The translations under genes were made by a program, and so were the position numbers. Shown one piece after another: positions 6,463-23,296 of a stretch of 64,000 bases of DNA. The notes below the pieces were generated by a model. That model was not told the DNA's origin. It did no database searches and saw only the letters and a program-made list of their open reading frames with translations. The stretch is from positions 13,086 to 77,085 of the forward strand of contig SKXQ01000086.1 of assembly GCA_007128315.1 (NCBI GenBank). The letters are read 5' to 3'. The stretch is from Spirochaetaceae bacterium. GTDB taxonomy: Bacteria; Spirochaetota; Spirochaetia; DSM-27196; SKKC01. The stretch's first letter is position 1, and each line of letters begins with the position of its first letter.

Positions 6463-9400
6463 TTGAAAAGACGTACGATGAGCAGGGACGCGCGGAGAGG
6501 TATCGTAAACCGCGGCGAACCCGCAATGCGCTTTATCCGATCGGTAAAAGAATACAACGCTGAACATGGAACAGAACTGAGCACTGTCGCATTTTTCGTG
6601 GCTGAAGAAGGCGAAGCGCTGTTTACGAAGGAAGCGGACTACGCCGTCCCGTTCTCCGACGTCCCGGCAGGCGAATCAAAGGCGGCGACCCCATATCTGA
6701 ATCATGAGCAACTGCTCGCCGGGCTCCAGCAGGCCTCGTGCTCCGCCGTTTGGCCCGGCTGGGGGTTTGTCAGCGAAGATGCGGATTTCGTCGCCCGGGT
6801 CGAAGAAGCAGGCATTGTTTTTCTGGGCCCGGATTCCGGGCCCATGGCTGCACTTGGTGACAAGATACAGGCCAAAGAGCTCGCCGAACAGAGCAATGTG
6901 CCCGTTCTACCCTGGAGTAACGGCCCGGTGCGTTCCATAGAAGAAGCACAGGCCATGGCGGAAAAAATCGGATACCCGTGCATCCTGAAAGCTGCAAATG
7001 CAGGAGGAGGAAGGGGAATACGCTTCGTCATGGAACCCGACGAGCTGCTGTCGCAGTTTACGTCGGCCCGGGACGAAACTATAAGGATCACCGGCAACGA
7101 TATACTGTTCATGGAGCGTCTGGTCGTACACGGACGTCATCTCGAGGTTCAGTGCCTCGCAGACACACACGGTACTGTTGCTACCTTTGGTGTTCGCGAC
7201 TGTTCGGTACAGCGCAAGAATCAGAAGATTATAGAAGAAACCCCACCACCAGACGTCAGGGACGATCTCGTACCTGAAATGGAAGCCGCCGCGGCACGCC
7301 TTCTGGAGACAGCCGGATATACCGGAGCGGGGACCGTTGAGTTTCTGTACGACCTTGATCGTGCCGAGTACTACTTCATGGAGGTGAACACGCGACTCCA
7401 GGTGGAACATTGTGTTACCGAGGAGTTGTACGGCATAGACCTGGTAAAAGGACAGATCGATGTCGGACTCGGTAACCGCATAACACCCCGCACACAGGAG
7501 CCAGTGGGACACGTCATGGAAGTCCGGCTTAACGCCGAGGATCCGGACCGGGAGTTCACCCCCGCTCCGGGTTACGTATCTACTTTCAAACCCCCTGCCG
7601 GTCCCGGCATTCGCGTCGACTCCGGCGTCGAACAGGGCTCAACGATTCCGGCGGTTTTTGATTCGATGATCGCGAAGATCATAGCAAAGGGACCAAACCG
7701 TCAGGCGGCTATCGCTCGTTTAGAGCGGGCGTTGCGAGAGCTCCGCGTCCGCATCGAAAACGGTACAACCAACCGAAGTTTTCTGCTTGCCCTCCTCGCG
7801 AACGAGCAGGTCCGGACGGGTAAAGTACACACGCGATGTGTGGAACAGATGCTCGCCGAACGACGCGTTGCTACCGGGGGACCCGATGCCCGGTACGCGA
7901 TTTTCGCCTGTGCTGTCGAGAACTACCTCAGCGAATGCGAAGAAGATCTCGCGAACTTCAATCAGCAACTCTCAACGGCAGGAAATCCCAGAGATGTCAG
8001 AGGCGGTGAAGGCAAGACATGTTCGCTGAAGTATCGCGACTATCCCTACGAACTCCTCGTCAAATCGGTCGGTGAGAACGAGTTTCACATAGAAACTGAA
8101 GGCTCGGTGCATCGCATCACCTACCTGAAGCGCGATCACGAGGCCCTGCTGCTCGCAGGACCTCGACGGCTGAACGTGCAGACCGTCGAGCGCGGCGACA
8201 GCATACAGTGCGAGATTGACGGACATCCGTACGTGCTCGAAGTCGAGTCATCCGGTGCGGTAAAGGCTCCGTCGCCATCCATTGTGCTTTCCGTTCCCAC
8301 CACGGTCGGTCAGTCGGTTGCAAAAGGTGACGTGATCCTCAGCCTTGAAGCAATGAAAATGGAGATGATCGTAGAAGCACCGGAGTCAGGTGTGATTCGC
8401 GAGATACTCGTGAAACCCGGGGAGCAGGTTGCAGCCGGACAGGTCCTGATACAACTGGAAGCTGAAGGCGCTTCGGAATCATCTGTTTCAAGCGCCGAAC
8501 CGATACTGTTCGACGGACCGACGGTGATCGAAGAGGACGATCGCGTCCTCCGGGAGTTTCAGAGCCTGTTCCTCGGCTACGACTACAGTTTTGACGTATC
8601 AAAAAAAGGCCCGGCTCTTCTCCGTACTTCTGTTTCCGGATCTGAGCGAAACGTGCATGCCGACCGCATCATCGAAGCAATGGAAGCATTCGTGGCCGTT
8701 GGCGTGCTGTTCGGCGACCGAAAGGGAATGGCCGAAGGCTTCGCGCGACCGGCTCCGTATTCCGAGCTTCTGATTCATTACTACAAACGCCACCTGGACC
8801 GGGAACGCGGGATGCCTCAGGACTTTCTCGACAGTCTGAACCGCGCCCTGAAGCATTACGTTCGTGACGAGTTCGGCGGTCTCGACAAAGAGCGAAGCAT
8901 CCTGCTGAGAATGTTCCGTTCGCACGCAATCCGTGAGGTGAAGCAGCAGGTTCTCCGGGAAACGCTGTTCGTACTGGAAGAAGCCGGCCTTCCATCCGCC
9001 TCACCGCATAACCCCGGTGATCTGCTCGATGAAATAGCCCTGCTCTGCGGTGTTCAGGCGCGCGCCCTTGCCGACGCGGCGATCCATGCACGGTACCAGT
9101 TGATCGACCGGCAGTTTCTGCAGTCCTTGAAGGAAGAACGCTACGAGCAGATCAGCAGAGCGGTAGACCTCATTCATCGTGCGGGTGACCGACAGGGTGT
9201 CATTGATGGCATCATGGCCCGTATTATCGACAGCGGACACAATATCAACGCCGAACTCGTTCGCACGGTTATCGATGAGTCCGATGCGTCTCGTGCCATC
9301 GTTATGGAGATGCTTGCGCGACGCTTCAATCGAGACCGGAACATCCGGTCAGTCTCGACGCTGTCCTGTGATGTTTCCGGTGTCTCGCAGTGTGCCGTGG

Positions 9401-12000
9401 TCGTTTCAGAGGACGGCACCGGGGTACACACACAGCTTGTCGTTGTCGGCACGCCTGCTCTCGCCACGGCACTTCCGGAGGCCGTTGACGCATCATCCTC
9501 CATCATCGCCGGACACCGGCATCGGGGAGACGCGGAAGTTCTCATACTGATTGATGGCCGCGACAAAAGCCTTGATGCCGATGGTGTTTTCCCTTCGCTC
9601 CAGGGTTTGAAGACAGATGCAAGCTGGATTTCAGTCGGTATCCTCCATTCCGGTGGTACCACATACCGGACCTTCGTGCCCGCTGCCGAAGGGCTGCAGG
9701 AGGACACCCACCGGGGTCCGTTTAATCCCCTGCGCTATCGCGAACTGCGCATCGAACGCCTGGCAAACTTTACCTACACCGTCGCGTACGCGGGTGAGTT
9801 CGTTACCCTTATCGATGCGGTGTGCCGTACGGACAAGAAAGACGAGCGGCTTTTCGCTCTCGTAGAGATACCGAGCTCCCGCCTTGAACTCGATGAAACG
9901 GGACAGATCAGGCGCATGGTCGCGTTCGAGAACGTGTTCATGGAAGCCGTATACGCAATGCGGGCCGAGCAGGCAAAGCGCGCCCGCCGTCTGCAATGGA
10001 ACCGCATTATCGTACACATGCGCAGCGTGGTTGATGCCCGCCTCGAAGACATTCGTGCCTACGGCGAAGCGCTCAGCACCCGGGCTGCGGATCTCGGGCT
10101 CGAGAAGTTCGTTCTCTACAATCGGAGGCTCTCGCACGCTGACCAAAGCCCGAAAGAAGTCGAAATGCTCTTCGAAAACATTTCCGGGCGAAGTTTCTCC
10201 CTGCGCGGACGAACACCGTCTCGCGAGATTCTGCAGCCGATTGATGCATATACCGCGAAAGTTGTGCGCGCGCGACAACGCGGCACAGTCTATCCCTACG
10301 AACTCATTAAACTCATCACCCGGACCGGCATACAGGTCTCGGAATCCTTCCCGAAAGGCGACTTTGAAGAGTTCGACATCGCCCTTGAGGGTGATACAAG
10401 CCGGCCGGTATCCGTACGTGGTCGGGCTTCTGGTGACACCAGAGCAAACATCGTATTCGGCATTATCACGTCCTGGCCTGCGACGGTCCCGGAAGGTATT
10501 GCGCGAGTGCTGATACTCTCGGACACCACGTCGGACATGGGTTCGCTGAGCGAAGCCGAATGCCGCAGGATAAATGCAGCACTCGATCTCGCCGAAGAGC
10601 GGAAACTCCCTGTGGAATGGATTCCTGTCTCGGCAGGTGCCCGTATCGACATGGACAGCGGAACCGAAAACCTTGACTGGACAGCGGATACGCTCAAACG
10701 AATCATCCAGTTCACCCAGAGCGGCGGCGAAATAAACATAATTGTCAGCGGTATCAACGTCGGAGCTCAGAGCTACTGGAACGCGGAAGCAACGATGCTC
10801 ATGCATACGCGCGGTCTTCTGATTATGACCGAAGACGCATCCATGCTGCTGACCGGCAAGCGGGCACTCGATTTTTCCGGCAGCGTGAGTGCCGAAGACA
10901 ACGTCGGCATCGGCGGTGCGGAGCGAATCATGGGGCCAAACGGCCAGGCTCAGATCACCGTCCGCGATCTGTTCAGTGCGTACGAGGTCCTGTTCCGTCA
11001 TTATGAGCTTTCCTTCGCGCAGCCAGGAAAACGCTTTCCCGAACGTCGAAGAACCGACGATCCATCCGATCGGAATGCAGGTCTGACCCCGTATCAGGAC
11101 GCACTCGGGCAGGGTTTTCAGACCATAGGGGACATCTTTTCGCCAACGCTGAACCCGGAACGGAAGAAACCCTTTGATATGCGGCAGGTGATGTCCGCCG
11201 TGATTGACAGCGACTCGCCCGTTCTCGAACGCTGGCGTGATATGCGCGACGGAGAAACGGCCGTCGTCTGGGAGTCTCGAGCTGGCGGATACTCGATAGG
11301 CCTGATCGGCATCGAAAGCAGATCGCTATCGCGGATCGGAGAGGTACCTCACGATGGACCCGAAAGCTGGAGTGGTGGTACCCTCTTTCCAATGTCCAGC
11401 AAGAAGGTTGCCAGGGGCTTGAACGCCTTCAGTGGGCGCCTTCCCGCGGTTATCCTGGCGAACCTCAGCGGTTTCGACGGCAGCCCGGAATCCTTGCGAA
11501 AACTGCAGCTGGAGTACGGCGCAGAAATCGGACGCGCCGTCGTTAATTTCGACGGCCCCATCGTGTTCGTCGTCATGGCTCGCTACCACGGCGGCGCCTA
11601 TGTCGTGTTCTCGAAAAAGCTGAATCCGCACCTGCACTCAGCCGCACTCGAGGGAGCCTACGCCTCAGTCATCGGCGGCGCGCCGGCAGCGGCAGTCGTT
11701 TTTCCCGGGATCGTGCGAAAGGAAACCTATGACGACTCACGGGTCAAGGAAGCGTCAAAAAAGCTTAACGAAGATCCGGGGTTCACACAGAAAGACTTTG
11801 AGAATGTGTTGCAGTCGGTCCAAAGCGAAAAACAGGCCGAACTCGCCACACGTTTCGACCGCATCCACAGTGTCGAGCGGGCCCGTGATGTTGGCAGTAT
11901 TGACAGCATAATCTCAATCTCGGAACTCCGGCCATATATTATTGGTTCCGTCGAGCACGGAATGGCCGCGTTCCCTGATTCGTCGCGTCCGTCGAGTTGA
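6463..12000 (+). CDS. Single-chain multidomain biotin-dependent acyl-CoA carboxylase (biotin carboxylase - BCCP - long central region - carboxyltransferase)
   Basis: 1845 aa with no internal stop. TTG start at 6463, 6 nt after GGAAGGAG. BC/ATP-grasp region: IVNRGEPAMRFIRSV, ILKAANAGGGRGIR, YFMEVNTRLQVEH. Biotinyl domain with EAMKMEM. The CT N- and C-subdomains resemble the eukaryote-type ACC CT (LILSDTTSDMGSLSEAE...IPVSAGARID; LPAVILANLSGFDGSPESLRKLQLEYGAEIGRAV...YHGGAYVVF). Confidence 0.9.
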   Translation: MKRRTMSRDARRGIVNRGEPAMRFIRSVKEYNAEHGTELSTVAFFVAEEGEALFTKEADYAVPFSDVPAGESKAATPYLNHEQLLAGLQQASCSAVWPGWGFVSEDADFVARVEEAGIVFLGPDSGPMAALGDKIQAKELAEQSNVPVLPWSNGPVRSIEEAQAMAEKIGYPCILKAANAGGGRGIRFVMEPDELLSQFTSARDETIRITGNDILFMERLVVHGRHLEVQCLADTHGTVATFGVRDCSVQRKNQKIIEETPPPDVRDDLVPEMEAAAARLLETAGYTGAGTVEFLYDLDRAEYYFMEVNTRLQVEHCVTEELYGIDLVKGQIDVGLGNRITPRTQEPVGHVMEVRLNAEDPDREFTPAPGYVSTFKPPAGPGIRVDSGVEQGSTIPAVFDSMIAKIIAKGPNRQAAIARLERALRELRVRIENGTTNRSFLLALLANEQVRTGKVHTRCVEQMLAERRVATGGPDARYAIFACAVENYLSECEEDLANFNQQLSTAGNPRDVRGGEGKTCSLKYRDYPYELLVKSVGENEFHIETEGSVHRITYLKRDHEALLLAGPRRLNVQTVERGDSIQCEIDGHPYVLEVESSGAVKAPSPSIVLSVPTTVGQSVAKGDVILSLEAMKMEMIVEAPESGVIREILVKPGEQVAAGQVLIQLEAEGASESSVSSAEPILFDGPTVIEEDDRVLREFQSLFLGYDYSFDVSKKGPALLRTSVSGSERNVHADRIIEAMEAFVAVGVLFGDRKGMAEGFARPAPYSELLIHYYKRHLDRERGMPQDFLDSLNRALKHYVRDEFGGLDKERSILLRMFRSHAIREVKQQVLRETLFVLEEAGLPSASPHNPGDLLDEIALLCGVQARALADAAIHARYQLIDRQFLQSLKEERYEQISRAVDLIHRAGDRQGVIDGIMARIIDSGHNINAELVRTVIDESDASRAIVMEMLARRFNRDRNIRSVSTLSCDVSGVSQCAVVVSEDGTGVHTQLVVVGTPALATALPEAVDASSSIIAGHRHRGDAEVLILIDGRDKSLDADGVFPSLQGLKTDASWISVGILHSGGTTYRTFVPAAEGLQEDTHRGPFNPLRYRELRIERLANFTYTVAYAGEFVTLIDAVCRTDKKDERLFALVEIPSSRLELDETGQIRRMVAFENVFMEAVYAMRAEQAKRARRLQWNRIIVHMRSVVDARLEDIRAYGEALSTRAADLGLEKFVLYNRRLSHADQSPKEVEMLFENISGRSFSLRGRTPSREILQPIDAYTAKVVRARQRGTVYPYELIKLITRTGIQVSESFPKGDFEEFDIALEGDTSRPVSVRGRASGDTRANIVFGIITSWPATVPEGIARVLILSDTTSDMGSLSEAECRRINAALDLAEERKLPVEWIPVSAGARIDMDSGTENLDWTADTLKRIIQFTQSGGEINIIVSGINVGAQSYWNAEATMLMHTRGLLIMTEDASMLLTGKRALDFSGSVSAEDNVGIGGAERIMGPNGQAQITVRDLFSAYEVLFRHYELSFAQPGKRFPERRRTDDPSDRNAGLTPYQDALGQGFQTIGDIFSPTLNPERKKPFDMRQVMSAVIDSDSPVLERWRDMRDGETAVVWESRAGGYSIGLIGIESRSLSRIGEVPHDGPESWSGGTLFPMSSKKVARGLNAFSGRLPAVILANLSGFDGSPESLRKLQLEYGAEIGRAVVNFDGPIVFVVMARYHGGAYVVFSKKLNPHLHSAALEGAYASVIGGAPAAAVVFPGIVRKETYDDSRVKEASKKLNEDPGFTQKDFENVLQSVQSEKQAELATRFDRIHSVERARDVGSIDSIISISELRPYIIGSVEHGMAAFPDSSRPSS
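8347..8367 (+). other. Biotin attachment motif EAMKMEM (Lys codon AAA at 8356-8358)
   Basis: Codons gaa gca atg aaa atg gag atg read directly. This is the canonical A-M-K-M biotinyl-lysine motif. Confidence 0.85.
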
Positions 12001-14053
12001 ACGCGTCTACAACCTCTTCGGGAGTCCGGGAGGCGAGTATCGCCTCCCGGACTTCATCCCGTCTCAACCGTTGCACGAGGGCCGCGAGAAACTGCAGGTG
12101 CGGACCTTTACTGTTTTTCGGCGATGCCAGCAGGACGACTATATTCGAAAGCTTCTGATCGACCGCCTGAAAGTCGATCCCGTCGGGAATAATACCGATC
12201 GCGCACACCATTCTCGACACACCGTCTGTCTTGGCGTGCGGAATTGCCAAGCCTCGCTCCATACCCGTACCGGTCTGTTGCTCGCGGTGAATAACGTCGG
12301 CGATAACCAGTTCCTGATCAAGAACCGCATCTGCAGGCAAGAGAGCTGCCAGCGCCTCTATCGCCTCTTCCCGTGTTTCGACACGTAAGGGAACCCGGAC
12401 CTGCGTCGGACTCAAATACTCTCCGAGTCGCATGCTGTCCCGGCCCTTCGCCTCGGCGGCACCACGGCGGATCTCTTCGGGAACCGCCATTTGTGCCATT
12501 CGACTGACGCGGTCGGACACGTGCACGAGCGTCTCGTAGAGCGCGGTCTTGAGCACGCCCTCGTCCTGACTATCGCCTGATAGTTCGATGCGGGTTCCCT
12601 TGACCGTAAAGGTATACGTCACATTGTCCCGTCGTATTCGGTACAGGAGTTTATCCAGTTCGAGACGATGAACAATGTATCCGTCCGCTGCGAACGATCG
12701 CAGAAGTCCGCCTCGCACAAGGTCTGCGATCTCTTCGTTCGGTACGTCGAGAGAGACGACGGCCGGCTTCACCTCCATAGACGAGTCAGATCGGCCACTT
12801 TTCTCCAGTTTTGTCAGCGCCGAAAACAGCGGCGAACCGACCAGAATAGAGGTAATCGTCATGATCGCGATGATATCGAAACGTTCCGGCGATATGAGCC
12901 CCGATGCATCACCAACGAGTCCCATAATGAGCGCGACCTCTCCTCGTGAGACCGTCCCCATGCCGATGCGGAGCGCACCGGTCAGATTGAAACCGCCCCG
13001 AAGCGCCGGGATTCCCGAGCCGATCAGTTTCGCGAGACCCGAAACGAGCGCGAACAGGATGCCTGCGAACAGGACGTGCGGTGTAAGAATCACCGATATG
13101 TCTATGAACATTCCCAGGATTGCGTACAGAAGCGGGACGAAAAAGTCAGCCACCGGCCTCATTCGTTCCTGTATCAGGTCAACAACGTCTGTCCGCGAAA
13201 GCGCTGCTCCGACGCCGTAGGCTCCGATTATTGATGCGATTCCGGCCAGTTCGAACGAACCGGAAAACAGCAGCGCAAGAGCGAGCGCCGGGATCGCGGC
13301 AACAGCAGCCGGAGCTCCGATCCGCTTGAGTACGTTCGCGATCTGGGGTGCAAAGCCAATAACCAGTGCGAATCCAACGATCCAGACTACGAGCGCCTGA
13401 ACAAAAATCGGTACCGTCCCGGCAAACAGCCCTGCTGCATCTGATTCGCCGTCGAAACTCAGTAAGGCCATCGTGATCGCGAGTATTGTAATCGCGAGGC
13501 CGTCCTGCAGCAGCGACGATTCCATGATCACACGACCTTCGGGAGTGTCGAGCTTATGATAGTCGGACAGAATGCGAGCCTGTACACCGAGCGACGTAGA
13601 AATCGAGATCCCGGCGAAGAACAGGACGACCGGGTTCCCGAAATCGTATCCGAGCACAACGACAGGGAAAACGGCGCCTACGATGCCCGGTAGAATGATT
13701 CCACCCATGGCAGGACGAACAGCTACAGCTTTCAGCCTGGCGAGCGAGCGTATGTCCGTCTCGAGTCCGACGAGAAAGATGTGAACGACCGCCCCCACGG
13801 CGGCAAACGCGTATAATTCGATAGAGATTGGGAGAATGCCTGTTTCAAGAGGAAAAAAACCGTGCTCAAACCCGGGAAGCGACAACGAGCCAAGGGCATA
13901 CGGTCCCACGACAACACCCGCCAATACTTCTCCGAGAAGCGTCGGCAGGCCAATCTTCCTGGCCATAATACCGGCAATCTTCGCGACAACGAGAAGAGCG
14001 CCAATCTGAAGGAGCAGCTGAGCCAGTTGATGAGTCAGTTCAGTTCCGTGCAT
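11939..14053 (-). CDS. CPA2-family cation/proton antiporter fused to an unassigned soluble domain and a C-terminal PTS EIIA(Ntr/fructose, type 2) domain
   Basis: 704 aa. The N-terminal ~400 aa are a Kef-type membrane domain (LLGEVLAGVVVGPYALG...). The C-terminal domain has the EIIA-2 phospho-His motif (GTGMERGLAIPHAKTDGV...NIVVLLASP). I saw no GxGxxG Rossmann (RCK/KTN) motif. The start codon overlaps the upstream stop by 1 nt (TAATG). Confidence 0.85.
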   Translation of the reverse strand: MHGTELTHQLAQLLLQIGALLVVAKIAGIMARKIGLPTLLGEVLAGVVVGPYALGSLSLPGFEHGFFPLETGILPISIELYAFAAVGAVVHIFLVGLETDIRSLARLKAVAVRPAMGGIILPGIVGAVFPVVVLGYDFGNPVVLFFAGISISTSLGVQARILSDYHKLDTPEGRVIMESSLLQDGLAITILAITMALLSFDGESDAAGLFAGTVPIFVQALVVWIVGFALVIGFAPQIANVLKRIGAPAAVAAIPALALALLFSGSFELAGIASIIGAYGVGAALSRTDVVDLIQERMRPVADFFVPLLYAILGMFIDISVILTPHVLFAGILFALVSGLAKLIGSGIPALRGGFNLTGALRIGMGTVSRGEVALIMGLVGDASGLISPERFDIIAIMTITSILVGSPLFSALTKLEKSGRSDSSMEVKPAVVSLDVPNEEIADLVRGGLLRSFAADGYIVHRLELDKLLYRIRRDNVTYTFTVKGTRIELSGDSQDEGVLKTALYETLVHVSDRVSRMAQMAVPEEIRRGAAEAKGRDSMRLGEYLSPTQVRVPLRVETREEAIEALAALLPADAVLDQELVIADVIHREQQTGTGMERGLAIPHAKTDGVSRMVCAIGIIPDGIDFQAVDQKLSNIVVLLASPKNSKGPHLQFLAALVQRLRRDEVREAILASRTPEEVVDAFNSTDATNQGTRPFRARRNQ

Positions 14054-15300
14054 TACCTGGCAGAAGTCCCCGATTCGCCGGTTTTGTCAAGACTGTAGCG
14101 AGTGAGAATGGGACCCACAAGCTCGAATATGACACTTGTCGCGGTAATGGTGACGATCACCGTACGTGCGATGGCCTCGCCTTCCGCACCAAGTGGTGAA
14201 AGTTCCTGCAGTGCGATGAGCGCAAGACCAATAGCCAGGCCGGCCTGCGACAGGATGCTGAGTCCAAGGTACTTCCGCACGTTTTCGGGTGCTTTCGCTC
14301 GTCTCGCGCCCATGGAAGCCCCGAGAACCTTACCTCCGGCTCTGCCGACAATATACATTATGCCTGCACCGCCAACCGCCGGAAGCAGGGAAAGATCGAG
14401 GTGGGCCCCGGCGAGCGCGAAAAACAGAACGAATACCGCAGGCGTGACCTCGGAGATGTAGCCCGCAATCGGTTCGACTACTCTAAGAGACTGGGTATTG
14501 GTGATAACGGCCCCTGCAGTCATGGCAGTCAGTACCAGCGACATGGGCATCACTTGCGAAAGCCCGGAGAGAAGAAAAACCGTGGCAAGGGTCAGAATAA
14601 ATACGTCCCGGGACTGACCGAGCGCCCGCGAAAGCAGTCCCGCAGCAAGGCCGGTGATGATGCCGATAGCGAGACTGAGCCCGATTTCGGTAAAGGGCGC
14701 TACGATCAGTGGCAGGACATCAACACCTTCACCCAGCCCGGCCTCTACCCCGATCAGGAACTTCGTGAGAGCGAGCGCGAAGCCAAAAACCAGGATTGCA
14801 GCAACGTCGTCGAAGCCTACTACGGCAAGAAGCGTCGACGTGAACCGTCCGCGCGCCCGGGTTTCCTGTACCACAGCGACAGTTCCGGCGGGCGCCGTCG
14901 TGACGGCGATAGCACCGAAAAGCACAGCGAGCGGCAATCGGAATGTCACCAGGTATACGAGAAGTGTCACGAGCGTAAAGGCCAGCAAGCTCTCCCAGGC
15001 GACGATACGCACCAGCTGCTTACCCTGCCCCTTCATCTGTTTCAGATTAAACTCGAATCCAATGGTAAGAGCTACGAACCCGAGAGCTATCTCAGTCACG
15101 AACGAGAGGTTCGCCAGCGTTTCACGGCTTATGATGCCGAGAACGGTGGGACCGGTAATCAAGCCAAGCACCATGAAGCCCATAAGCGAGGGGAGACGGA
15201 CGGATTTCATGAGGCGGCCGGCGAATACGCCGAGAAACAGTATTATTCCGACAATAACGAGAACCGGTACGCCGCCGGCGGGGGCTACTCCGTGATTCAT
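14053..15300 (-). CDS. CPA2-family cation/proton antiporter (membrane domain only)
   Basis: 415 aa, polytopic. Motifs LPSLMGFMVLGLITGP and TTAPAGTVAVVQETRARG, which are paralogous to 16209..17471. Confidence 0.85.
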   Translation of the reverse strand: MNHGVAPAGGVPVLVIVGIILFLGVFAGRLMKSVRLPSLMGFMVLGLITGPTVLGIISRETLANLSFVTEIALGFVALTIGFEFNLKQMKGQGKQLVRIVAWESLLAFTLVTLLVYLVTFRLPLAVLFGAIAVTTAPAGTVAVVQETRARGRFTSTLLAVVGFDDVAAILVFGFALALTKFLIGVEAGLGEGVDVLPLIVAPFTEIGLSLAIGIITGLAAGLLSRALGQSRDVFILTLATVFLLSGLSQVMPMSLVLTAMTAGAVITNTQSLRVVEPIAGYISEVTPAVFVLFFALAGAHLDLSLLPAVGGAGIMYIVGRAGGKVLGASMGARRAKAPENVRKYLGLSILSQAGLAIGLALIALQELSPLGAEGEAIARTVIVTITATSVIFELVGPILTRYSLDKTGESGTSAR

Positions 15301-15309
15301 GTTGTCGGC

Positions 15310-16104
15310 CTACAATTCCACGTGGCCCGACACATAAAATACGTCCCGGGCGGTAATAAGAACGTCGTCTGTCGCGTCCTGTTCCGCGAGTACATTTTTC
15401 ATACTTCTGATTGTCTCGTTCACGAGGCGTTTGTCGAGAAGGGCTGTCACAAGTCGTATCGATTCGTCAACATCGCTGGTCCATAACGAAGCGAACAGCG
15501 GCATGCGGGTCAGATAACTAGATGCTTTCTTGAACTCGTGCACGAAAACGTTTCCCGTCGTTCGGGACGTCAATTCTTCGAGTACCGCTTCGACCCCAAA
15601 GTGCACCGGCAGAAATACCTGCAGTTCGCACCATTCGATCTCCTCCGGTGCACTGTCCCGGTGAAAAATCGGGGACACGAGCGTTTTTAAGATGCTTTCG
15701 TTCGCCGCCTCCCGCAGCCGCATTCGCGACTCCTCCGGACGGACGAAACGTGAAATCCTGGAAAGCAGCGCCACGTGCTCGCTCCTCTGACCCGTTGGAG
15801 CAACAATGAAAAAAAACAAATCGACAGGAACACCGTCCGGAGCGTCGAATTCTACCGGTTTCTGTGTTGTCACGAGACCGGCTACGAAGTGATCCAGACC
15901 ATCAAGAAAGCAGTGCGGAAGCGCAACTCCATGGCCGATCGATGTCGATGTCACGTTCTCGCGACGCTGCAGCTTACGATATATCGCTTCGGTGCCAAAA
16001 TTCGGCAATAAATCGCTGACCTGTTCGGCAGCAAGATAAAGTATCTCATCAGCCGTCGACGCCGATTCTCCAGTCCGAAAAAACAGATCCTTCTCGATGT
16101 TCAT
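15310..16104 (-). CDS. Two-domain regulator: PTS EIIA(Ntr)-type domain + PII-like (beta-alpha-beta-beta-alpha-beta) domain
   Basis: EIIA-2 motif SIGHGVALPHCFLDG...DLFFFIVAP. The C-terminal ~110 aa have the PII-like secondary-structure order (CELQVFLPV / HFGVEAVLEELT / NVFVHEF / loop with MPLFA / IRLVTALL / VNETIRSMKNVL / VLITARDVFYVSG). Start moved to ATG 16104, with AGGTGG 5 nt upstream. The track start at 16194 leaves no promoter space. Confidence 0.7.
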   Translation of the reverse strand: MNIEKDLFFRTGESASTADEILYLAAEQVSDLLPNFGTEAIYRKLQRRENVTSTSIGHGVALPHCFLDGLDHFVAGLVTTQKPVEFDAPDGVPVDLFFFIVAPTGQRSEHVALLSRISRFVRPEESRMRLREAANESILKTLVSPIFHRDSAPEEIEWCELQVFLPVHFGVEAVLEELTSRTTGNVFVHEFKKASSYLTRMPLFASLWTSDVDESIRLVTALLDKRLVNETIRSMKNVLAEQDATDDVLITARDVFYVSGHVEL

Positions 16105-16168
16105 AGATACCACCTGATTACTACTACACGGTACAGATATTACGACACCGTGTCGATCGTTTGCTCCC

Positions 16169-16197
16169 TTGCGATTTGATACACTGTCCTTCATAAT
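16169..16197 (+). promoter_or_regulatory. Candidate sigma70-type promoter TTGCGA-17 nt-CATAAT for the plus-strand antiporter gene
   Basis: TTGCGA at 16169-16174 and CATAAT at 16192-16197. The start codon lies only ~12 nt downstream, implying a very short leader or a leaderless transcript. Sequence match only. Confidence 0.3.
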
Positions 16198-16208
16198 CGT
16201 TCGAGATC

Positions 16209-17471
16209 ATGACGGCACTCACTCACCTGATAGAACGTCTCGCAATTATCGATTTCTTGCGTATACATCCACTTTTTGCCATCGGGACAATGCTGGTTCT
16301 CGGCTATATTCTCGCAAAAATATCGGAGGTTCTACGCTTGCCGGAAATTACGGGCTTCATCCTTGCCGGCCTTGTCATGGGAAGCGGTGGACTCGCGGTG
16401 CTTGGCTACAGCGCATCCGAGGATCTAAGCGTAATTACCGAAGTCGCGTTAGGACTGATTGCCCTCACAATTGGCGGAGAGCTCCGACTCTCGAAACTAC
16501 GACGGATCATGCGATCAGTCGCGTGGATCACTGCCGGTCAGTTCGTCCTTCCATTTCTTATGGTCTCGTTCGCGCTTGTGTTGTTCGATAAGTCCTTCCC
16601 TTTCGCATTGCTTCTTGGAGTCGTCGCCACGACCACATCACCTGCTGCCATTGTGGCGGTCGTCCAGTCCACTCGTGCACGAGGACCTATTATCGACAGT
16701 CTTTACGGAACTGTTGCGCTGGGAGACGCACTTTCCATCGCGGCTTTCGGAATTGTACTGTCGATTGTTCCGTCGCTGTACGGTGAGTCGACCGCTGTGA
16801 CAGAACTGATTTTCACCGCGATTCTTGATATCGGCATGAGTATTGTACTCGGGATCGTATTCGGTTTTCTTACCTACGTCTCCACTCGTTCGCAGAACAA
16901 TACCGGTGAAGTCATGATCCTCACGCTCGGCTTCCTCTTTCTCGCGACGACGACCGCACTGCTGCTCGGGTTCTCTCCCCTGCTGGTCAATATGGCCACA
17001 GGCGCGACTTTAACCAATATCAGTCCGCGATCGAACAGGATTTTTCGGACGCTCGAGCCATTTACACCACCGGTATATGCACTTTTTTTCGTCATCGCCG
17101 GGACGAAACTGAACCCGTCGTTGCTTTTCAGCCCCGAAGTTCTTCTTTTTGGAACGGTGTTCGTCGTAGCACGCTGGACAGGAAAATACACTGGATCATA
17201 TCTCGGTGGGCTCATCTCTGGCGTAAGTAGCGAGGTACGACGGTATCTGGGGCTTGGACTGTTCGCACAGGCGGGGATTGCCCTCGGTCTGGTCGTACTT
17301 CTGCAGACGGCTCCTGAACTGCACGGTCTTCAGAGCATACCGGCCGGGGTGGTTCAGAGCAGCATCAATATCGTTCTCTTCTCGGTGTTCGTGAACGAGA
17401 TCACCGGACCACCAATCGCGAAAGTAGCAATACGGAGAGCTCTGAAACTGGAGGGAAAATGGAACTCATAG
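16209..17471 (+). CDS. CPA2-family cation/proton antiporter (membrane domain only)
   Basis: 420 aa, polytopic. LPEITGFILAGLVMGSGG and TTSPAAIVAVVQSTRARG. Alignable over its full length with 14053..15300. Confidence 0.85.
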   Translation: MTALTHLIERLAIIDFLRIHPLFAIGTMLVLGYILAKISEVLRLPEITGFILAGLVMGSGGLAVLGYSASEDLSVITEVALGLIALTIGGELRLSKLRRIMRSVAWITAGQFVLPFLMVSFALVLFDKSFPFALLLGVVATTTSPAAIVAVVQSTRARGPIIDSLYGTVALGDALSIAAFGIVLSIVPSLYGESTAVTELIFTAILDIGMSIVLGIVFGFLTYVSTRSQNNTGEVMILTLGFLFLATTTALLLGFSPLLVNMATGATLTNISPRSNRIFRTLEPFTPPVYALFFVIAGTKLNPSLLFSPEVLLFGTVFVVARWTGKYTGSYLGGLISGVSSEVRRYLGLGLFAQAGIALGLVVLLQTAPELHGLQSIPAGVVQSSINIVLFSVFVNEITGPPIAKVAIRRALKLEGKWNS

Positions 17472-18295
17472 ATGCTATAGATCCACTCGCGTGTGGAGTC
17501 GGTCTGAAAGCCCGCACAAAAGATGAAGCCCTGTGGAAACTGGCGGAACTCGCGCGCCGATCGAAGGCGCTCGAAGAAGTGGACGCACAGACCATCTACT
17601 CGGCTTTGAGTGAACGGGAACGACAGGGCTCAACCGGCTTCGGAAAGGAAGTCGCGCTTCCTCATGCACGCATACCCGGAATGGACGAGTTTCTTGTCCT
17701 GATTGCGATCTTTCCGGGAGGAGTACCTTTTGACACCGTAGACAAAAAGAAGGCCAAGGTTTTTTTCGTCATTCTCGGTCCCGCAGAAGACGTACAGTCA
17801 CATCTCCGGCTCCTTGCGGCGATCTCCCGAATCATTGCGCATACCAATGCGAAACAGGAACTGTTGAAGAGTCGCTCGATAGAAGCTGCCGTAGAGACGC
17901 TTCATCGCCACATCAACCAGGGCGATCAGGGTACAGCGAGCGGGAAAACCGGTGCAGATGCAATGAAGATGCTTCTGGTAACGGTCTATGTCGAGCAATA
18001 CATGTACGACATCCTCGAACTGCTCCTTGAGTTTGGAATCGATGGTGCGACCATTATGGAATCTACCGGTATGAGCCGGTATATCTCGAACGTCCCGCTG
18101 TTCGCGGAGTTCATCGGCTTCATGAACGAGAGCAAGAATTCGAGCAAAACCATCCTTGCGCTGGCCCCCGAGCGCCATATCCGGGCGATCGTTGAGCGTA
18201 TTGAGGAGGTCACAGGTGACCTTGACAAACAGGAAGGTGCGATGGTGCTCGCACTCGATGTGAGTTTCTACAAGGGAACCATGAAAATGATGTAG
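17459..18295 (+). CDS. Two-domain regulator: PTS EIIA(Ntr)-type domain + PII-like domain (paralogue of 15310..16104)
   Basis: EIIA-2 motif GSTGFGKEVALPHARIPG...KVFFVILGP. C-terminal PII-like pattern: KMLLVTVYVEQYMYDILELLLEFGIDGATIMESTGMSRYISNVPLFAEF...KTILALAPERHIRAIVERIEEVTG...AMVLALDVSFYKG. It overlaps the antiporter stop by 13 nt. Confidence 0.7.
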   Translation: MELIDAIDPLACGVGLKARTKDEALWKLAELARRSKALEEVDAQTIYSALSERERQGSTGFGKEVALPHARIPGMDEFLVLIAIFPGGVPFDTVDKKKAKVFFVILGPAEDVQSHLRLLAAISRIIAHTNAKQELLKSRSIEAAVETLHRHINQGDQGTASGKTGADAMKMLLVTVYVEQYMYDILELLLEFGIDGATIMESTGMSRYISNVPLFAEFIGFMNESKNSSKTILALAPERHIRAIVERIEEVTGDLDKQEGAMVLALDVSFYKGTMKMM

Positions 18296-18302
18296 AACCA
18301 TG

Positions 18303-20669
18303 TCAGTTCCCGGCGGTGATCTTCTCCAGAGTTTCGCGACAGGCTCTGTGCACTGCAGAGTGATCCGGATGCGATAACATTTGCTCCAGCAACCCTGTAA
18401 CCTCCTGGATTTCGAGCTCACCAGCAGCACGTACGAGTGCTGTCTTGAGCCTCCACTCGCATCGATCGCATATTTTTCCCGAAACGCCTTCCCGGAGCCA
18501 GACATACCGGTCATAGATGTTCTCATGGCTTAGCGATTGTTCGTCATCGAGCAGCTGTCGGGTCTCACCGGCCATCGACCTGATGCCTGCGTATGCGATG
18601 CAATCTACCGCCGCGAGTCGATCTTCCCAACTGTCCGACTGCAGTGCATCTCGAAGCATTCCGGGAAGCGCATCGGAATCGAGAACGGCTGACGAGTACA
18701 GTCTGTCATGAGCCGATTCGCCCGCCTCTCCCGGTCGCGGCGTACGCAGATCCGGACACAACAGGTTTTCCCGCAACTCGACTTGCCCTGTAGTCGATCC
18801 GACTACATCAATGTCCTCAGCACCCTGCAGACGGTCGCCCGCTTGTGGAATACGTCCGAGATTGAGCGTATGTGTGCCAGCGTTATCGTCGATCCTGAGA
18901 TACGCATCGGTGCGTTCTATCTTCGGATCACAGCCTGCACCGGCGGGTATCCCGCACAATACATGAACAAGCCTGCACCGAACGCCACGACCCTTCACAG
19001 CAATGCGGGTAGACGAAGCTTCAAAGACACGCGGATACCCTTCGATGAACTCGTGTTCAAGAACACATTGTGGGTCAGGGATGAGACAGGCACACACATC
19101 GTTGATTTCGGACATATACGCCTTTGCTCCGTCTTCAAGCGTTACAGGCAAGGCTTTCGCTCTGAGAAAAAAACGAGCTTCATAGTCGTGGGTAGAGTCG
19201 AACTGTAAATCGTCAACGATCACAACGGAACAGGACGATAGCAGTATGCTCGTCCGTTCAATCCTCTTCACACCCGCAATATCGCGGTAAAATTCCGTCA
19301 CATCCGCTCGCACAGACGGATAGGTGCCGTCTATTGTGCCGGCGGTCCCGTTGCCTTCGGCAGGCAGCTCCGGCCGGTAGAACTCATCATCATCGATGAT
19401 GATTACGTTGTGCCCGGCGAGTGTTCCGTAACCGAAGTTGTACGCAAGACCATCCAGATTGCTGAACGCGGTATTTTCGTCGGCAAACCGTGTGCATACA
19501 TCGGTCGGCATGCCATCCATCAGAAAGGGGACACCGGAAAACTCAAATACCAGGGAGTTCGGATTTACCTGCTGTCTAACCGGATTTACTCCTTCGCATC
19601 GATCCCACATCTGAAATATGTACAGCCCGGTCTCGCTGCCTCCCCACAGACCGGCACCGACTTCTGGATGAATCCAGTGACCGAAGCGATGGGACTCCTC
19701 AGTAACCGCCGGCCAGAATACGGCCGTAAGTATCTGATCGTCTCCGCCCCACATGATCTCGTGGTCGTAGGCGAAGACATTAGAACTCCGTATCAGACCG
19801 AGCAGCTCGGGTCTTTTATAGTGCGCGTACCATGCCAGAGCGGCTGAACCGAGCGCTGGCACATAGTCGTAATGGTCCCACGGTAAGAGGTACCCCGAGG
19901 GGGTGAAACAGCGATAGTTCATTTCAAGCAGATCATCAACACACGATCCATTCGGCGAGAATCGAATCCCGGCGAGACCGGTGTCTGTCATATACTGCAG
20001 GCTTGCATCCAGAAGCGCGAGAGTCGGCGCGGCCACGACAGCCATGTACGTGCTCCCCTCGCCGGTATACCCGGTCCGGGGCATGCTTCCGAGCAGAGGT
20101 CCAAGACGCTCGAACCCATATCGCAGAACTACCTGGGAGGATGCCCGGGAATCAATAAGCTGGCCCAGAATGTAGCCCATGATTATACACGAGACGACCA
20201 GCGCTGCGGTCTGGTTGTTTCCATCAAACGTGGATTTCAGCCTGGTCGACTGGTACACATTCAAGTAGAGATAATCTGAAAAACTCTGTTCGATATAGCG
20301 CTTGTCAGCCTCGGCGAACGCTCCACTGTCTCGCACCCACGTGTAATATACAAGAACACGCGCTACCGGGAGAGCCCCGACCCAGTGGTCGATCTGTCCC
20401 TCCCTGTACAGTTCGCGCACGCGCAGCTGCGCCGTAAAGTGCAATATCGACTGCCGTGCAGATAAAGCGTAGCGCTCCTGACCCGTCAGCACCCATGCGA
20501 GAGCGGCGTGCCAGTTAAACGGAGGCGTCAACGGTGATGTTATTGGCCCCTCCCGTCCCTCTGCCTCTGCTGCTTCGAGTAAAGTACGATAGTAATCAGA
20601 CGGAAAACAGGTATGAATCTTCTTCCGGAACGTTTCTTTGTCTCGTATCAGGAACAATCCTGTCTCCAT
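18303..20669 (-). CDS. Cytoplasmic heparinase II/III-like (alpha/alpha toroid + beta-sandwich) protein with C-terminal HEAT-like repeats
   Basis: Start set at ATG 20669 (METGLF...), with GGGAGG 7 nt upstream. No signal peptide. The central NPNSLVFEFSGVPFLMDGMP resembles the Hepar_II_III core. The C-terminus (SDSWEDRLAAVDCIAYAG...; ALVRAAGELEIQEVTGLLEQMLSHPDHSAVHRACRETL) looks like HEAT/PBS-lyase repeats. The family call is tentative. Confidence 0.5.
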   Translation of the reverse strand: METGLFLIRDKETFRKKIHTCFPSDYYRTLLEAAEAEGREGPITSPLTPPFNWHAALAWVLTGQERYALSARQSILHFTAQLRVRELYREGQIDHWVGALPVARVLVYYTWVRDSGAFAEADKRYIEQSFSDYLYLNVYQSTRLKSTFDGNNQTAALVVSCIIMGYILGQLIDSRASSQVVLRYGFERLGPLLGSMPRTGYTGEGSTYMAVVAAPTLALLDASLQYMTDTGLAGIRFSPNGSCVDDLLEMNYRCFTPSGYLLPWDHYDYVPALGSAALAWYAHYKRPELLGLIRSSNVFAYDHEIMWGGDDQILTAVFWPAVTEESHRFGHWIHPEVGAGLWGGSETGLYIFQMWDRCEGVNPVRQQVNPNSLVFEFSGVPFLMDGMPTDVCTRFADENTAFSNLDGLAYNFGYGTLAGHNVIIIDDDEFYRPELPAEGNGTAGTIDGTYPSVRADVTEFYRDIAGVKRIERTSILLSSCSVVIVDDLQFDSTHDYEARFFLRAKALPVTLEDGAKAYMSEINDVCACLIPDPQCVLEHEFIEGYPRVFEASSTRIAVKGRGVRCRLVHVLCGIPAGAGCDPKIERTDAYLRIDDNAGTHTLNLGRIPQAGDRLQGAEDIDVVGSTTGQVELRENLLCPDLRTPRPGEAGESAHDRLYSSAVLDSDALPGMLRDALQSDSWEDRLAAVDCIAYAGIRSMAGETRQLLDDEQSLSHENIYDRYVWLREGVSGKICDRCEWRLKTALVRAAGELEIQEVTGLLEQMLSHPDHSAVHRACRETLEKITAGN

Positions 20670-20750
20670 TCTGCATCCTCCCGATCCGGCATAAAAAAGG
20701 CGGGCGCCTTCCGGCACCCGCCTGGACGGCAGCAGTTCACTGACGAACGA

Positions 20751-22292
20751 CTATCTGCCCCACGCTTCACGATTCTCGTTGTACCAGCCCTGTACAATAC
20801 GCTGCACCGATTCACCACCAAGCCTGCTCCACTCGGAAACAGCCTGCTGGTAGGCCTCGCGTGGACTGACTGTACCAAGCTGAACCTCGACCATGATGTC
20901 GTTGAATACCGGAGCAAACTCATCGTTAAAGTTCAGAATCTCCTGCATGGTCGGGCGAAACGGTGTGTCGCGACGGAACGTTACAGCGAGCTGTGTTTCA
21001 ATTGCCTCGCCGCGCATTCTCGCGATTTCCTGTGACATCGGGTCATCTGCGGCAAGAACGGGAAGCCATTCGGTCTGAAGCTGCCACTGCTGCAGAAGAA
21101 TATAGTCCCAGGCGTAGCGAAGCTGCTCGTTGTGCTGGTCACCGGTAAGCAGCGTACGGGGTACACCGTCTACCATCTCATGGTGTTGCCCTTCGAAACC
21201 GAAGCGAAGCGTGAACCATCCTTCGTCGACCAACCAGTCAAGATACTCGATTGCCGCCCGGGGATTCGCAATATTGCGATTAAGTGCGACAAACCGCTCA
21301 GCCGGTGGTTCCTGAAGTAATCCGAACCGACCATGTCGCGTCTCGAAAGGACCGAGTGGCTGAAGTTGAGCACCAGGAACGTTCGCCAGCAGTTCCTGAT
21401 AGTGGGGCGGGTTCACCCCGGAGAAATGTATGCCAGCTCGCCCGGTAACCCACAACTGACGCTGGCGTTGCCGCTCGCTGTCGGTCACGAGCTCAGGATC
21501 GACCCATCCGCGCTCATTCGCCAACTGGTGAAAGGTAAAGAAATCAACAAGACGTTCCTGGGTACGCGCTTCAGAAATAACCCCGGTATCGTCTACGTAC
21601 CATTCACGACTGTATACAGCGTATAGCGCTTCGATGATTGGCATATAGGCATGGTCTGCGGCAAATGCGAACGTATCGTTTTGCCCTGTACCATTCGGGT
21701 CCTGATTGACAAATGCATCGGCAACAGCAAAGAACTCTTCCTCGGTCGTCGGAACGTCAAGACCGACATTATCGAGCCAGTCTTTTCTTATCCACATGAG
21801 ATGTCCACTGATTGAGTCCTGCGATCGCATGGTTGTGACCGCATACATCTCATTATTTTCGCCGAATCGGAGGTAGGGATCGAGATGAGGGTTGTCCGCG
21901 AGGTACTGTCTCAGACTCGTACTGTACTGTTCAATCCAGTCATCCAGCGGGGCAAGGACTCCCTGGGCCTGAAAGTTTGCAACGGTATCGCGCGAGAAGT
22001 CATTGATGATATCGGGCGCCGTACCTGCGGCAAACTGGGTGTTCAGCACTTCCCTGACTTCCCATCTCGGAACCGGGACCATCCGGATATCCAGACCACT
22101 GTCCTCCCGGATCCAGTCGAGCCAGTCGTTGTCGTCCATTGTTCCGCGCTCGGCGGGAGCCCATCCACGCTCGTAGACCATGACCGACACCGTATCCTCG
22201 GATACTGCTTCCCGACGCCCGCCGGCAAATACAATACCGGTCACCGCGAGAAGCAGGACCGCCGTAAAAACTAGTGACGTGATTTTTTTCAC
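20751..22292 (-). CDS. Extracellular solute-binding protein of a carbohydrate ABC transporter (large LplA/YtcQ-type)
   Basis: Start moved to GTG 22292 (VKKITSLVFTAVLLLAVTGIVFAGG, a signal peptide), with GGGAGG 6 nt upstream. The length and W/D/Y-rich composition are typical of family-1 sugar SBPs. It lies adjacent to two permeases. Confidence 0.8.
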   Translation of the reverse strand: MKKITSLVFTAVLLLAVTGIVFAGGRREAVSEDTVSVMVYERGWAPAERGTMDDNDWLDWIREDSGLDIRMVPVPRWEVREVLNTQFAAGTAPDIINDFSRDTVANFQAQGVLAPLDDWIEQYSTSLRQYLADNPHLDPYLRFGENNEMYAVTTMRSQDSISGHLMWIRKDWLDNVGLDVPTTEEEFFAVADAFVNQDPNGTGQNDTFAFAADHAYMPIIEALYAVYSREWYVDDTGVISEARTQERLVDFFTFHQLANERGWVDPELVTDSERQRQRQLWVTGRAGIHFSGVNPPHYQELLANVPGAQLQPLGPFETRHGRFGLLQEPPAERFVALNRNIANPRAAIEYLDWLVDEGWFTLRFGFEGQHHEMVDGVPRTLLTGDQHNEQLRYAWDYILLQQWQLQTEWLPVLAADDPMSQEIARMRGEAIETQLAVTFRRDTPFRPTMQEILNFNDEFAPVFNDIMVEVQLGTVSPREAYQQAVSEWSRLGGESVQRIVQGWYNENREAWGR

Positions 22293-22390
22293 GCTGCACC
22301 TCCCTGAAAGTTTGTGACTGTCGAAACACCGAACGTACGCTGCCGTTCGGGGCATTCGCAGATTTATACCTTGTCTCATTCGTGGAGCCT

Positions 22391-23287: not shown

Positions 23288-23296
23288 GGTATGCTC

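Follow-up and report, generated by a model that had tools for sequence, protein, structure and literature searches.

Candidate PII-like regulatory subunits with a phosphotransferase-type domain encoded beside cation/proton antiporters in a Spirochaetaceae bacterium

Cation/proton antiporters (CPA) set the cytoplasmic pH and the Na+ and K+ levels of the cell, and how the many that lack an RCK domain are regulated is largely unknown. This question is raised by a block of five genes in a Spirochaetaceae bacterium (assembly GCA_007128315.1, contig SKXQ01000086.1), located at positions 11939-18295 of the 64,000-nt stretch of DNA analysed here, which is referred to as the window. According to the list of open reading frames (ORFs), the block is composed of a minus-strand operon C-B-A and a plus-strand pair D-E, and it combines three antiporter genes (A, B and D) with three type 2 enzyme IIA (EIIA) domains of the phosphoenolpyruvate (PEP)-dependent phosphotransferase system (PTS). 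We consider it probable, though well short of certain, that the block encodes three regulated cation/proton antiporter modules, in which C and E are PII-family regulatory subunits of B and D with a PTS phospho-histidine input.

The minus-strand operon begins with gene C (15310..16104, 264 aa), whose product carries a PTS_EIIA_2 domain at residues 3-137 (E-value 3.7e-23) followed by about 105 more residues; the length of 264 aa agrees with the NCBI gene call and with the orthologue in a related locus, L003. The stop of C is separated by a 9-nt gap from the start of gene B (14053..15300, minus strand, 415 aa), which encodes a membrane-only antiporter (Na_H_Exchanger, E-value 4.3e-31, no second Pfam domain) and whose stop overlaps the start of gene A by 1 nt (TAATG). 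Gene A (11939..14053, minus strand, 704 aa) encodes a putative CPA2 antiporter of the NapA-like kind, which continues into an unclassified linker domain and ends in an EIIA domain. On the plus strand, gene D (16209..17471, 420 aa) encodes a membrane-only NapA-like antiporter (Na_H_Exchanger, E-value 4e-31) and overlaps by 13 nt with gene E (17459..18295, 278 aa), the product of which consists of a PTS_EIIA_2 domain (residues 16-149, E-value 9.8e-24) and a PII-like domain. With 27% identity along the entire sequence (E-value 5e-22), proteins C and E are paralogues, as are B and D (33% identity, E-value 2e-56), and the membrane domain of A is only distantly related to D (23% identity, E-value 5e-05). 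The segment TTAPAGTVAVVQETRARG is found in B and TTSPAAIVAVVQSTRARG at its counterpart in D; likewise, MPLFA is found in C and VPLFA in E. A preliminary description, made from the sequence alone, had reported three antiporter genes and three type 2 EIIA domains within 6.4 kb, one EIIA fused to an antiporter, two soluble EIIA plus PII-like proteins coupled or adjacent to membrane-only antiporters, the two paralogous pairs with these motifs, and their divergent arrangement around a 104-nt spacer (16105..16208, between C and D). Pfam searches of all five proteins, the pairwise comparisons and the gene coordinates bear out each of these points. The same holds for its remark that EI, HPr/NPr and EIIB/C are lacking from the window: none of the other 36 ORFs (>=90 aa) matched the Na_H_Exchanger, PTS_EIIA_2, EI, HPr, EIIB or EIIC families, and therefore all six antiporter and EIIA domain instances of the 64 kb lie within one 6.4-kb block.

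Does this pairing of regulator and antiporter genes extend beyond the window? One genome per GTDB species was scanned, and 39 loci with a full two-domain relative of E were obtained, 38 of them with upstream DNA; they belong mostly to Spirochaetota and for the rest to Cloacimonadales, Lentisphaeria, Kiritimatiellae, the PVC group and Polyangia. Of the 38 informative loci, 37 have a D-type antiporter gene immediately upstream of the E-type gene, in the same orientation. Judged from the coordinates of the scanned loci, most of these gene pairs share 1 or 4 nt, within a range from a 10-nt overlap to an 18-nt gap. No further neighbour of the D-E pair is conserved beyond close relatives in the 39 loci. 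The C-B arrangement is rarer than D-E and is also conserved. All five genes are present in L003, and B-type orthologues come after C-like regulators in L083-86 and L097. The relatives of C were taken from the representative-library matches of the PII domain of E, and a metagenome scan with C itself yielded one locus, in which only the EIIA domain was matched. Directly after two of the C-like proteins, P0235 and P0190, at a distance of 0-1 nt, come antiporters that are much closer to B (E-values 2e-100 and 9e-97) than to D (2e-49 and 3e-51), and P0235 has a second B-type antiporter upstream. Thus, the regulator subtypes keep to their respective antiporter subtypes: E-type genes accompany D-type ones, and C-like genes accompany B-type ones. 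The pairing seen in the window is therefore found in related genomes as well, for C-like proteins as for E-type ones. Among close relatives the C-B pair has been gained or lost: L001 (4507..8837; 96% identical) contains A and D-E without C-B, and L003 (825..7208; 87% identical) has all five genes.

Relatives in which the two halves of the regulator are separate proteins indicate which half is the constant partner. Genomic context was available for eight stand-alone PII-like relatives, of which two are on very short contigs and one is cut upstream and has no transporter downstream. In three others (P0186, P0193 and P0188), with no EIIA, the gene overlaps the beginning of one for a B/D-type antiporter, and the remaining two (P0162 and P0177) each have a separate EIIA gene in front, the neighbouring genes sharing 4 nt, and P0162 is followed by a CLC channel. 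Since stand-alone PII-like genes pair with antiporters in the absence of an EIIA, it is the PII-like module, and not the EIIA, that is the common partner of the B/D antiporter clade. EIIA and PII-like domains are encoded as two genes with a 4-nt overlap in L090 (2528..3336), L091 (164..3013), L092 and L103 (2591..3330), and the existence of fused and split genes shows that the two domains are linked by gene fusion and fission.

The same loci bear on a simpler explanation of the pairing, namely that E and C act as global regulators of the PtsN kind, extended at the C-terminus, and share an operon with the antiporter without touching it. In its favour, one E-type gene has no antiporter neighbour (L030 907..1734, from a Lentisphaeria metagenome-assembled genome (MAG)) and is located between peptidase S49 and GH4 glycosidase genes, and split EIIA/PII-like pairs are situated beside a CLC channel or beside no transporter. 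However, mere co-expression would leave unexplained that the same partner is kept in 37 of 38 loci over several phyla, mostly with 1-4-nt overlaps, while all other neighbours vary; moreover, the regulator subtypes are faithful to their own antiporter subtypes, and EIIA-less PII-like genes keep the same partner. We therefore give this explanation very little probability. Judging by the CLC neighbours, the EIIA/PII pair may serve other ion transporters too. In L091 and L092, the split pair is followed by a 78-aa protein with a weak DUF2007 match and then by the CLC channel, which carries CBS domains.

What kind of domain is the part shared by E, C and the stand-alone proteins? A single-chain AlphaFold2 model of E (mean pLDDT 83.7) shows that the C-terminal domain, residues 168-278 (17960..18292, plus strand), has the order beta (169-176), alpha (179-191), beta (197-203), loop, beta (228-237), alpha (238-252) and beta (261-267). 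The loop between the second and third strands is long; its pLDDT is low at 207-210, and residues 213-223 form a short helix. The closest solved structure is that of PstA, a PII-like c-di-AMP (cyclic di-AMP) receptor (4wk1, Foldseek E-value 3.7e-5, TM-score 0.79 relative to the target; 4d3h was also matched; PMC4316997); unlike E, PstA is a stand-alone protein, neither linked to an antiporter nor fused to an EIIA. Membership in the PstA/DarA family itself was rejected, as there is no match to the Pfam CdAMP_rec model at E<=0.1 and the likeness is one of fold only. When the isolated C-terminal domain of E was used in a phmmer search of 1.84 billion representatives, 216 proteins were retrieved, including many stand-alone ones of 105-120 aa. 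Among 45 aligned relatives, 31, nearly all of them stand-alone, match Pfam P-II at E<=0.01 (best E-value 5e-9). In hhalign comparisons, the profile of the E-family domain matched that of the stand-alone relatives with 99.9% probability (E-value 1.5e-34). The corresponding domain of C, residues 158-264 (15313..15633, minus strand), matched the E-type PII domain with 99.9% probability (E-value 1.6e-32) and the stand-alone set with 97.7%. The C-terminal domain of E and C therefore represents a divergent branch within the PII superfamily, and the guess of the preliminary description that it would model as PII-like was sound for E, by its match to PstA, and for C, by its alignment to E.

The position of sequence conservation in this domain is consistent with a target-binding role. 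The T-loop-like segment of E, GMSRYISNVPLFAEFIGFMNESKN (residues 204-227; 18068..18139, plus strand; in C, 15460..15531, minus strand), is the most conserved stretch of the family. Its mean top-residue frequency is 0.88, compared with 0.85 for the B-loop-like motif T-G-D-x-x-x-x-x-G and 0.83 for the EIIA active site; the EIIA domain taken as a whole has 0.67, and the hypervariable interdomain linker 0.26. E has 196 homologues in the search made with it. Among 156 full-length two-domain relatives, P213 is present in 154 and F215 in 155, and in the B-loop-like motif G253 is found in 155 and G260 in 145. The Pro-x-Phe at the tip of the loop is also kept in the stand-alone relatives.

The second half of the regulators raises the question of whether the EIIA domains are phosphorylated or only structural. 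All three exceed the Pfam gathering cut-off of PTS_EIIA_2 (27 bits), with 100.7 bits for A, 82.5 for C and 84.4 for E. In A the domain comprises residues 546-686 (11996..12418, minus strand, E-value 9.3e-29) and in C residues 3-137 (15694..16098, minus strand), and the EIIA-Ntr-like domain of E spans residues 1-150 (17459..17908, plus strand). The phosphorylatable histidine contexts listed in the preliminary description are all present: AIPHAK contains His606 of A (codon 12236..12238), ALPHCF contains His64 of C (15913..15915) and ALPHAR contains His69 of E (17663..17665). The active-site set of E. coli IIA-Ntr is R57, H73 and H120 (PMC1201152), and the equivalent Arg at -16, acceptor His and second His at +46 are present in A, C and E. 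The conservation of the histidine among relatives is equally clear, for R53 and H69 are found in all of the 156 two-domain relatives of E, down to 26% identity, and H115 in 147 of them, while each of the 43 A-type fusions compared has R590, E591, H606 and H652. Within the model of E, the EIIA domain matches the solved IIA-Ntr structures 3urr, 1a6j, 2a0j and 4gqx (Foldseek E-values 8e-13 to 6e-12, TM-scores 0.86-0.89 relative to the target). As for the EIIA-Ntr type assigned in the preliminary description, the NCBIfam PtsN model TIGR01419 is the top model for C (68.9 bits) and E (71.4 bits), which upholds the assignment as a best match; however, all three domains, with A at 58.3 bits, are below its cut-off of 138.7 bits, and for A a fructose-type IIA is the top EIIA model. 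The linkage with rpoN, hpf and ptsO that is typical of proteobacterial ptsN is missing, since there are no such genes in the window and no conserved non-antiporter neighbour in the 39 loci. Judging by their sequences, the domains of A, C and E are EIIA-Ntr-like with an intact phospho-acceptor site, and are not PtsN orthologues.

An EIIA fold may also serve as a structural or ligand-binding domain without a phospho-acceptor, as in SLC4 (band 3), in which case control would be by ligand or pH only. Cytoplasmic domains of band 3 and other SLC4 proteins are indeed among the fold matches of E, which means that the EIIA fold is used elsewhere as a non-PTS appendage of transporters, and no EI or HPr gene is found near any of the loci. 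On the other hand, the residues conserved here are exactly those of the phosphotransfer site, and the active-site stretch is among the most conserved segments of the protein. In addition, at least one spirochaete, Treponema denticola, is reported to have HPr-based phosphoryl transfer and HprK/P, yet no PTS permeases (Gonzalez et al. 2005; PMC2937029). We regard a purely structural or ligand-binding EIIA as unlikely, and phosphorylation of the conserved histidine is retained as the proposed input.

The partners of these regulators are antiporters of unequal pedigree. For A, the membrane domain (Na_H_Exchanger, residues 22-413, 12815..13990, minus strand, Pfam E-value 4.6e-46) has NapA as its closest solved sequence (5.7e-26) and fold (4bwz, TM-score 0.85 relative to the target), with KefC at 5.4e-5 and the KefC structures 8bxg and 8by2 among the fold matches. 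NapA is also the closest solved sequence to D (1.9e-11), ahead of MjNhaP1 (3.4e-9), whereas the single PDB match of B is the CPA1 protein MjNhaP1, at a weak 2e-3. All three are below the cut-off of TIGR00932. The CPA2 label that the preliminary description had applied to all three would thus appear well supported for A and reasonable for D; for B, whose sole PDB match is a CPA1 protein, it would follow only from paralogy to D. It was right, however, that the antiporters lack the RCK/KTN domain: no match to TrkA_N or TrkA_C was found at E<=0.1 in any of the five proteins, nor in the neighbouring ORFs. The Pfam match reaches residue 399 of 415 in B and 405 of 420 in D, and both proteins end just past the last membrane helix. 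Because B and D have no cytoplasmic domain, any regulator must bind the membrane domain itself.

The ion-binding region of these antiporters varies. In an alignment made without the NapA sequence, the motifs of transmembrane helix 5 (TM5) are FDDV in B, LGDA in D and LQDG in A; we take the DD pair to correspond to the NapA-type TM5 motif and the QD of A to be KefC-like. Across the D-type orthologues (L001-L039), the pair is mostly Asp-Asp (ALDDA), with Gly-Asp in the clade of the window. Further variants of the acidic pair (site in D of the window at about 16680..16700) are Leu-Asp in L033 and L034, and Gly-Ala, with no Asp, in L006. This variation suggests that ion coupling may be altered, or transport lost, in some D-type members.

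How might such a soluble protein control a domain-less antiporter? Two precedents carry our proposal, namely the inhibition of YcgO by PtsN and the target binding of PII proteins by the T-loop. In E. coli, unphosphorylated PtsN binds the K+/H+ antiporter YcgO/CvrA and holds it closed, and phosphorylation of His73 releases it (PMC11808508); the cryoEM structure of the YcgO-PtsN complex places H73 at the interface, and H73E abolishes binding (bioRxiv 10.64898/2026.08.14.744764). Direct EIIA-Ntr control of a CPA antiporter is therefore established in trans, and the principle is less new than the preliminary description implied. The present system resembles PtsN-YcgO in that an EIIA-Ntr-type domain with Arg/His/His would act on an antiporter of the CPA superfamily according to the phosphorylation state of one histidine, phosphorylation being here part of the proposal. 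It differs in that PtsN, which consists of one domain, acts in trans from a gene distant from ycgO and docks on the cytoplasmic CorC and RCK domains of YcgO, a CPA1 protein. In contrast, neither of the NapA-like antiporters B and D has a cytoplasmic domain; the EIIA forms one chain with a PII-like domain in C and E and with the transporter in A, and the genes belong to coupled operons. For PII proteins, the T-loop is the main target-binding element, as in the SbtB-SbtA complex (PMC10117731). In GlnK-AmtB and SbtB-SbtA (PMC10117731, PMC8395244), as here, a small PII-fold protein is encoded beside the transporter, a long T-loop is the expected contact and a nucleotide is a probable input; the differences lie in the CPA partner, which is dimeric in all solved cases whereas AmtB and SbtA are trimeric, in the unrelated and partly hydrophobic T-loop sequence, and in the EIIA placed in front.

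A further parallel is offered by the antiporters of the same superfamily that are controlled by a cytoplasmic module. In KefC/KefF, KhtT-KhtU and CpaA, a CPA2 membrane domain is under the control of a nucleotide- or ligand-sensing module that is fused to it or encoded in the operon. Unlike those systems, the regulatory folds here are EIIA and PII-like, not Rossmann-type RCK.

Based on these precedents, we propose that C would be made together with B, and E with D, as detachable soluble two-domain subunits. The PII-like domain would dock on the antiporter, most likely by the conserved, partly hydrophobic T-loop (G-M-x-x-Y-I-S-N-V-P-L-F-A-E-F-I-G-F-M), in a manner that would resemble the T-loop of GlnK in AmtB or SbtB in SbtA. 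The EIIA domain would be phosphorylated on His69 (E), His64 (C) or His606 (A) by HPr or NPr, as part of a regulatory PTS whose genes are located elsewhere in the genome; the phosphodonor is an assumption, since no EI, HPr or NPr gene is nearby. Phosphorylation may toggle the subunit between an inhibiting and a permissive state, as it does for PtsN and YcgO in E. coli, and a nucleotide (adenine nucleotides or c-di-AMP) bound at the PII-like domain is a possible second input. In A, the EIIA input would act in cis, behind the linker domain. The analysis itself shows which domains are present, that the acceptor site is intact, that the fold is of the PII type, that the gene pairs are coupled and conserved with fidelity between subtypes, and that split and EIIA-less variants exist. 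From these features and the precedents we infer that the proteins bind each other and do so through the T-loop, that phosphorylation occurs and in which sense it acts, and likewise the ligand and the ion exchanged (Na+ or K+ against H+).

The signal might also run in the opposite direction. The antiporter would then sense cytoplasmic pH, Na+ or K+ and govern phosphotransfer by the EIIA through binding and release of the PII-like domain, so that ion status is reported to the regulatory PTS. The evidence of physical pairing fits this equally, the direction of signalling is fixed by nothing found here, and EIIA-Ntr proteins have many targets that are not transporters (PMC13104625). However, the EIIA-less PII-like genes that pair with the same antiporters show a function of the pairing that needs no PTS output, the EIIA of A is tethered to its transporter and would be better suited to local control than to a diffusible output, and the transporter is the regulated party in all characterised PII and PtsN cases (PMC11808508, PMC10117731). 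Signalling from the antiporter to the PTS is accordingly held to be very unlikely, and control of the antiporter by its PII-like subunit remains the preferred explanation.

Several results weigh against this explanation, in addition to the antiporter-less E-type gene of L030 and the split pairs of L091 and L092, which sit by a CLC channel and not by an antiporter. As to the input, no EI, HPr or NPr gene is present in the window or within about 8 kb of the 39 related loci; tblastn of the window and the 39 loci with HPr and NPr query sequences gave nothing credible. As to the PII assignment, E matches Pfam P-II (PF00543) only below the threshold (residues 173-252, E-value 0.055, 14.3 bits against a cut-off of 25), and C has no Pfam P-II match at E<=0.1. 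Direct profile similarity to canonical GlnB/GlnK is also weak, at 55% probability for the E-type and 4% for the C-type, and the P-II link rests for this reason on the stand-alone intermediates. The nucleotide-contact residues are only partly recognisable, with no clear equivalents of Lys58, Arg101 and Arg103. The pTM of the E model is 0.56, so that the arrangement of its two domains is unreliable. Finally, the known PII proteins are trimers that act on trimeric transporters, whereas CPA antiporters are dimers, and a simple T-loop plug does not fit.

A wider interpretation is that the family would join GlnK-AmtB and SbtB-SbtA as a third partnership between a PII protein and a transporter. The detachable subunit of domain-less NapA-like antiporters would be a dedicated PII branch, which would have captured an EIIA in spirochaetes and several other phyla, so that pH and Na+/K+ homeostasis would be under the joint control of PEP/PTS status and a nucleotide signal. 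The two classic modules of metabolic signalling in bacteria would thereby be joined in a natural fusion, of which our literature searches gave no earlier account. We put the chances of this wider interpretation at somewhat under even. If true, a new docking geometry would be needed, the partner being a dimeric elevator-type transporter.

Gene A represents the version of the module in which the input is fused to the transporter. Its architecture, an antiporter followed by the linker and an EIIA (PF00999 and PF00359), with PTS_EIIA_2 at residues 546-686 behind the membrane domain, is shared by at least 120 full-length relatives (counted as clusters) in spirochaetes (Treponema, Breznakiella) and one deltaproteobacterial MAG, and these are annotated merely as 'cation:proton antiporter'. 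LacS is a secondary transporter with a fused EIIA-Glc-like domain, and its phosphorylation by HPr tunes transport (PMC10710835). As a transporter with a fused EIIA, A is a direct analogue of LacS; unlike in LacS, where the EIIA is of the glucose type, that of A is of type 2 (mannitol/fructose/Ntr), and the transporter families and substrates differ. Another secondary transporter fused to an EIIA was observed in L019 (617..2500, Cloacimonadales), where an AA_permease_2 with a C-terminal PTS_EIIA_2 is encoded about 4 kb upstream of a D-E pair.

Between the membrane domain and the EIIA of A lies a linker domain of about 95 aa (residues 431-521; 12491..12763, minus strand), modelled by AlphaFold2 as beta-alpha-beta-beta-beta-beta-alpha. 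Within it, E441, G458, R474 and E507 are invariant in 43 sequences. The domain has no Pfam match and no match to a PDB sequence. Its identity as a second PII-like domain was rejected (hhalign probability 0.6%), as was, on sequence, that as a CorC_HlyC or RCK_C domain, with no Pfam match at E<=10 for 12 members. A fold search of whole A listed matches of the membrane domain only. By analogy, the linker might have a docking role like that of CorC in YcgO.

One sigma-70-like match is present in the spacer between C and D (16169..16197, plus strand). Promoter and terminator counts in a scan of 11700..18600 were not clearly above those of shuffled sequences (5 vs 3.6±2.5 and 13 vs 7.0±2.6), and no regulatory claim is therefore made for the 104-nt spacer. 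Convergent to gene A, with the 3' ends overlapping by 62 nt, is the gene of an 1845-aa single-chain protein (window 6463..12000, plus strand) that combines biotin carboxylase, biotin carrier and carboxyltransferase. Directly downstream of E, an 804-aa ORF (18303..20717, minus strand) has no Pfam match and adjoins an ABC sugar-uptake gene set (20751..24268). A protein identical to E is present in the NCBI assemblies GCA_003566595.1 and GCA_007123585.1, and the closest relatives of E are from Spirochaetaceae MAGs. The isolate names of these MAGs are ones that we take to denote soda-lake and hypersaline sediment series.

What is new in this arrangement can be separated from what is known. EIIA-Ntr gating of a CPA antiporter in trans (YcgO) and PII regulation of co-encoded transporters (AmtB, SbtA) are already known. 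Four features appear to be undescribed: the EIIA-PII-like fusion, the obligate partnership of this fusion with domain-less NapA-like antiporters, the pairs of PII-like protein and antiporter that lack an EIIA, and the large A-type family. The preliminary description had presented the architecture as a candidate undescribed system, and no description of it was found: full-text literature searches, the coverage of which does not include Barabote & Saier 2005, a possible listing of such fusions, retrieved neither a paper on the fusion of EIIA and PII nor one in which a PII-like protein is paired with a CPA antiporter. In a 2026 review of PTS-Ntr, the words 'fused', 'fusion', 'spirochet' and 'PII' do not occur, and antiporters come up solely where the YcgO paper is cited.

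The host is presumably from soda-lake sediment, where we assume Na+/H+ exchange to be critical for survival. For RCK-less antiporters in general, the family offers a candidate answer to the question of how they are regulated, namely a co-translated PII-like subunit with or without phospho-histidine input. Natural controls are at hand, since one window contains the fused and two separate-subunit versions, and the relatives contain EIIA-less and split versions. If phosphorylated, the A-type fusion would be the second bacterial transporter, after LacS, that is regulated by direct phosphorylation. If the proposal is true, a new transporter class would be added to the targets of the PII superfamily, and, if it is confirmed, PTS-dependent control of ion transport would extend far past the proteobacterial PtsN.

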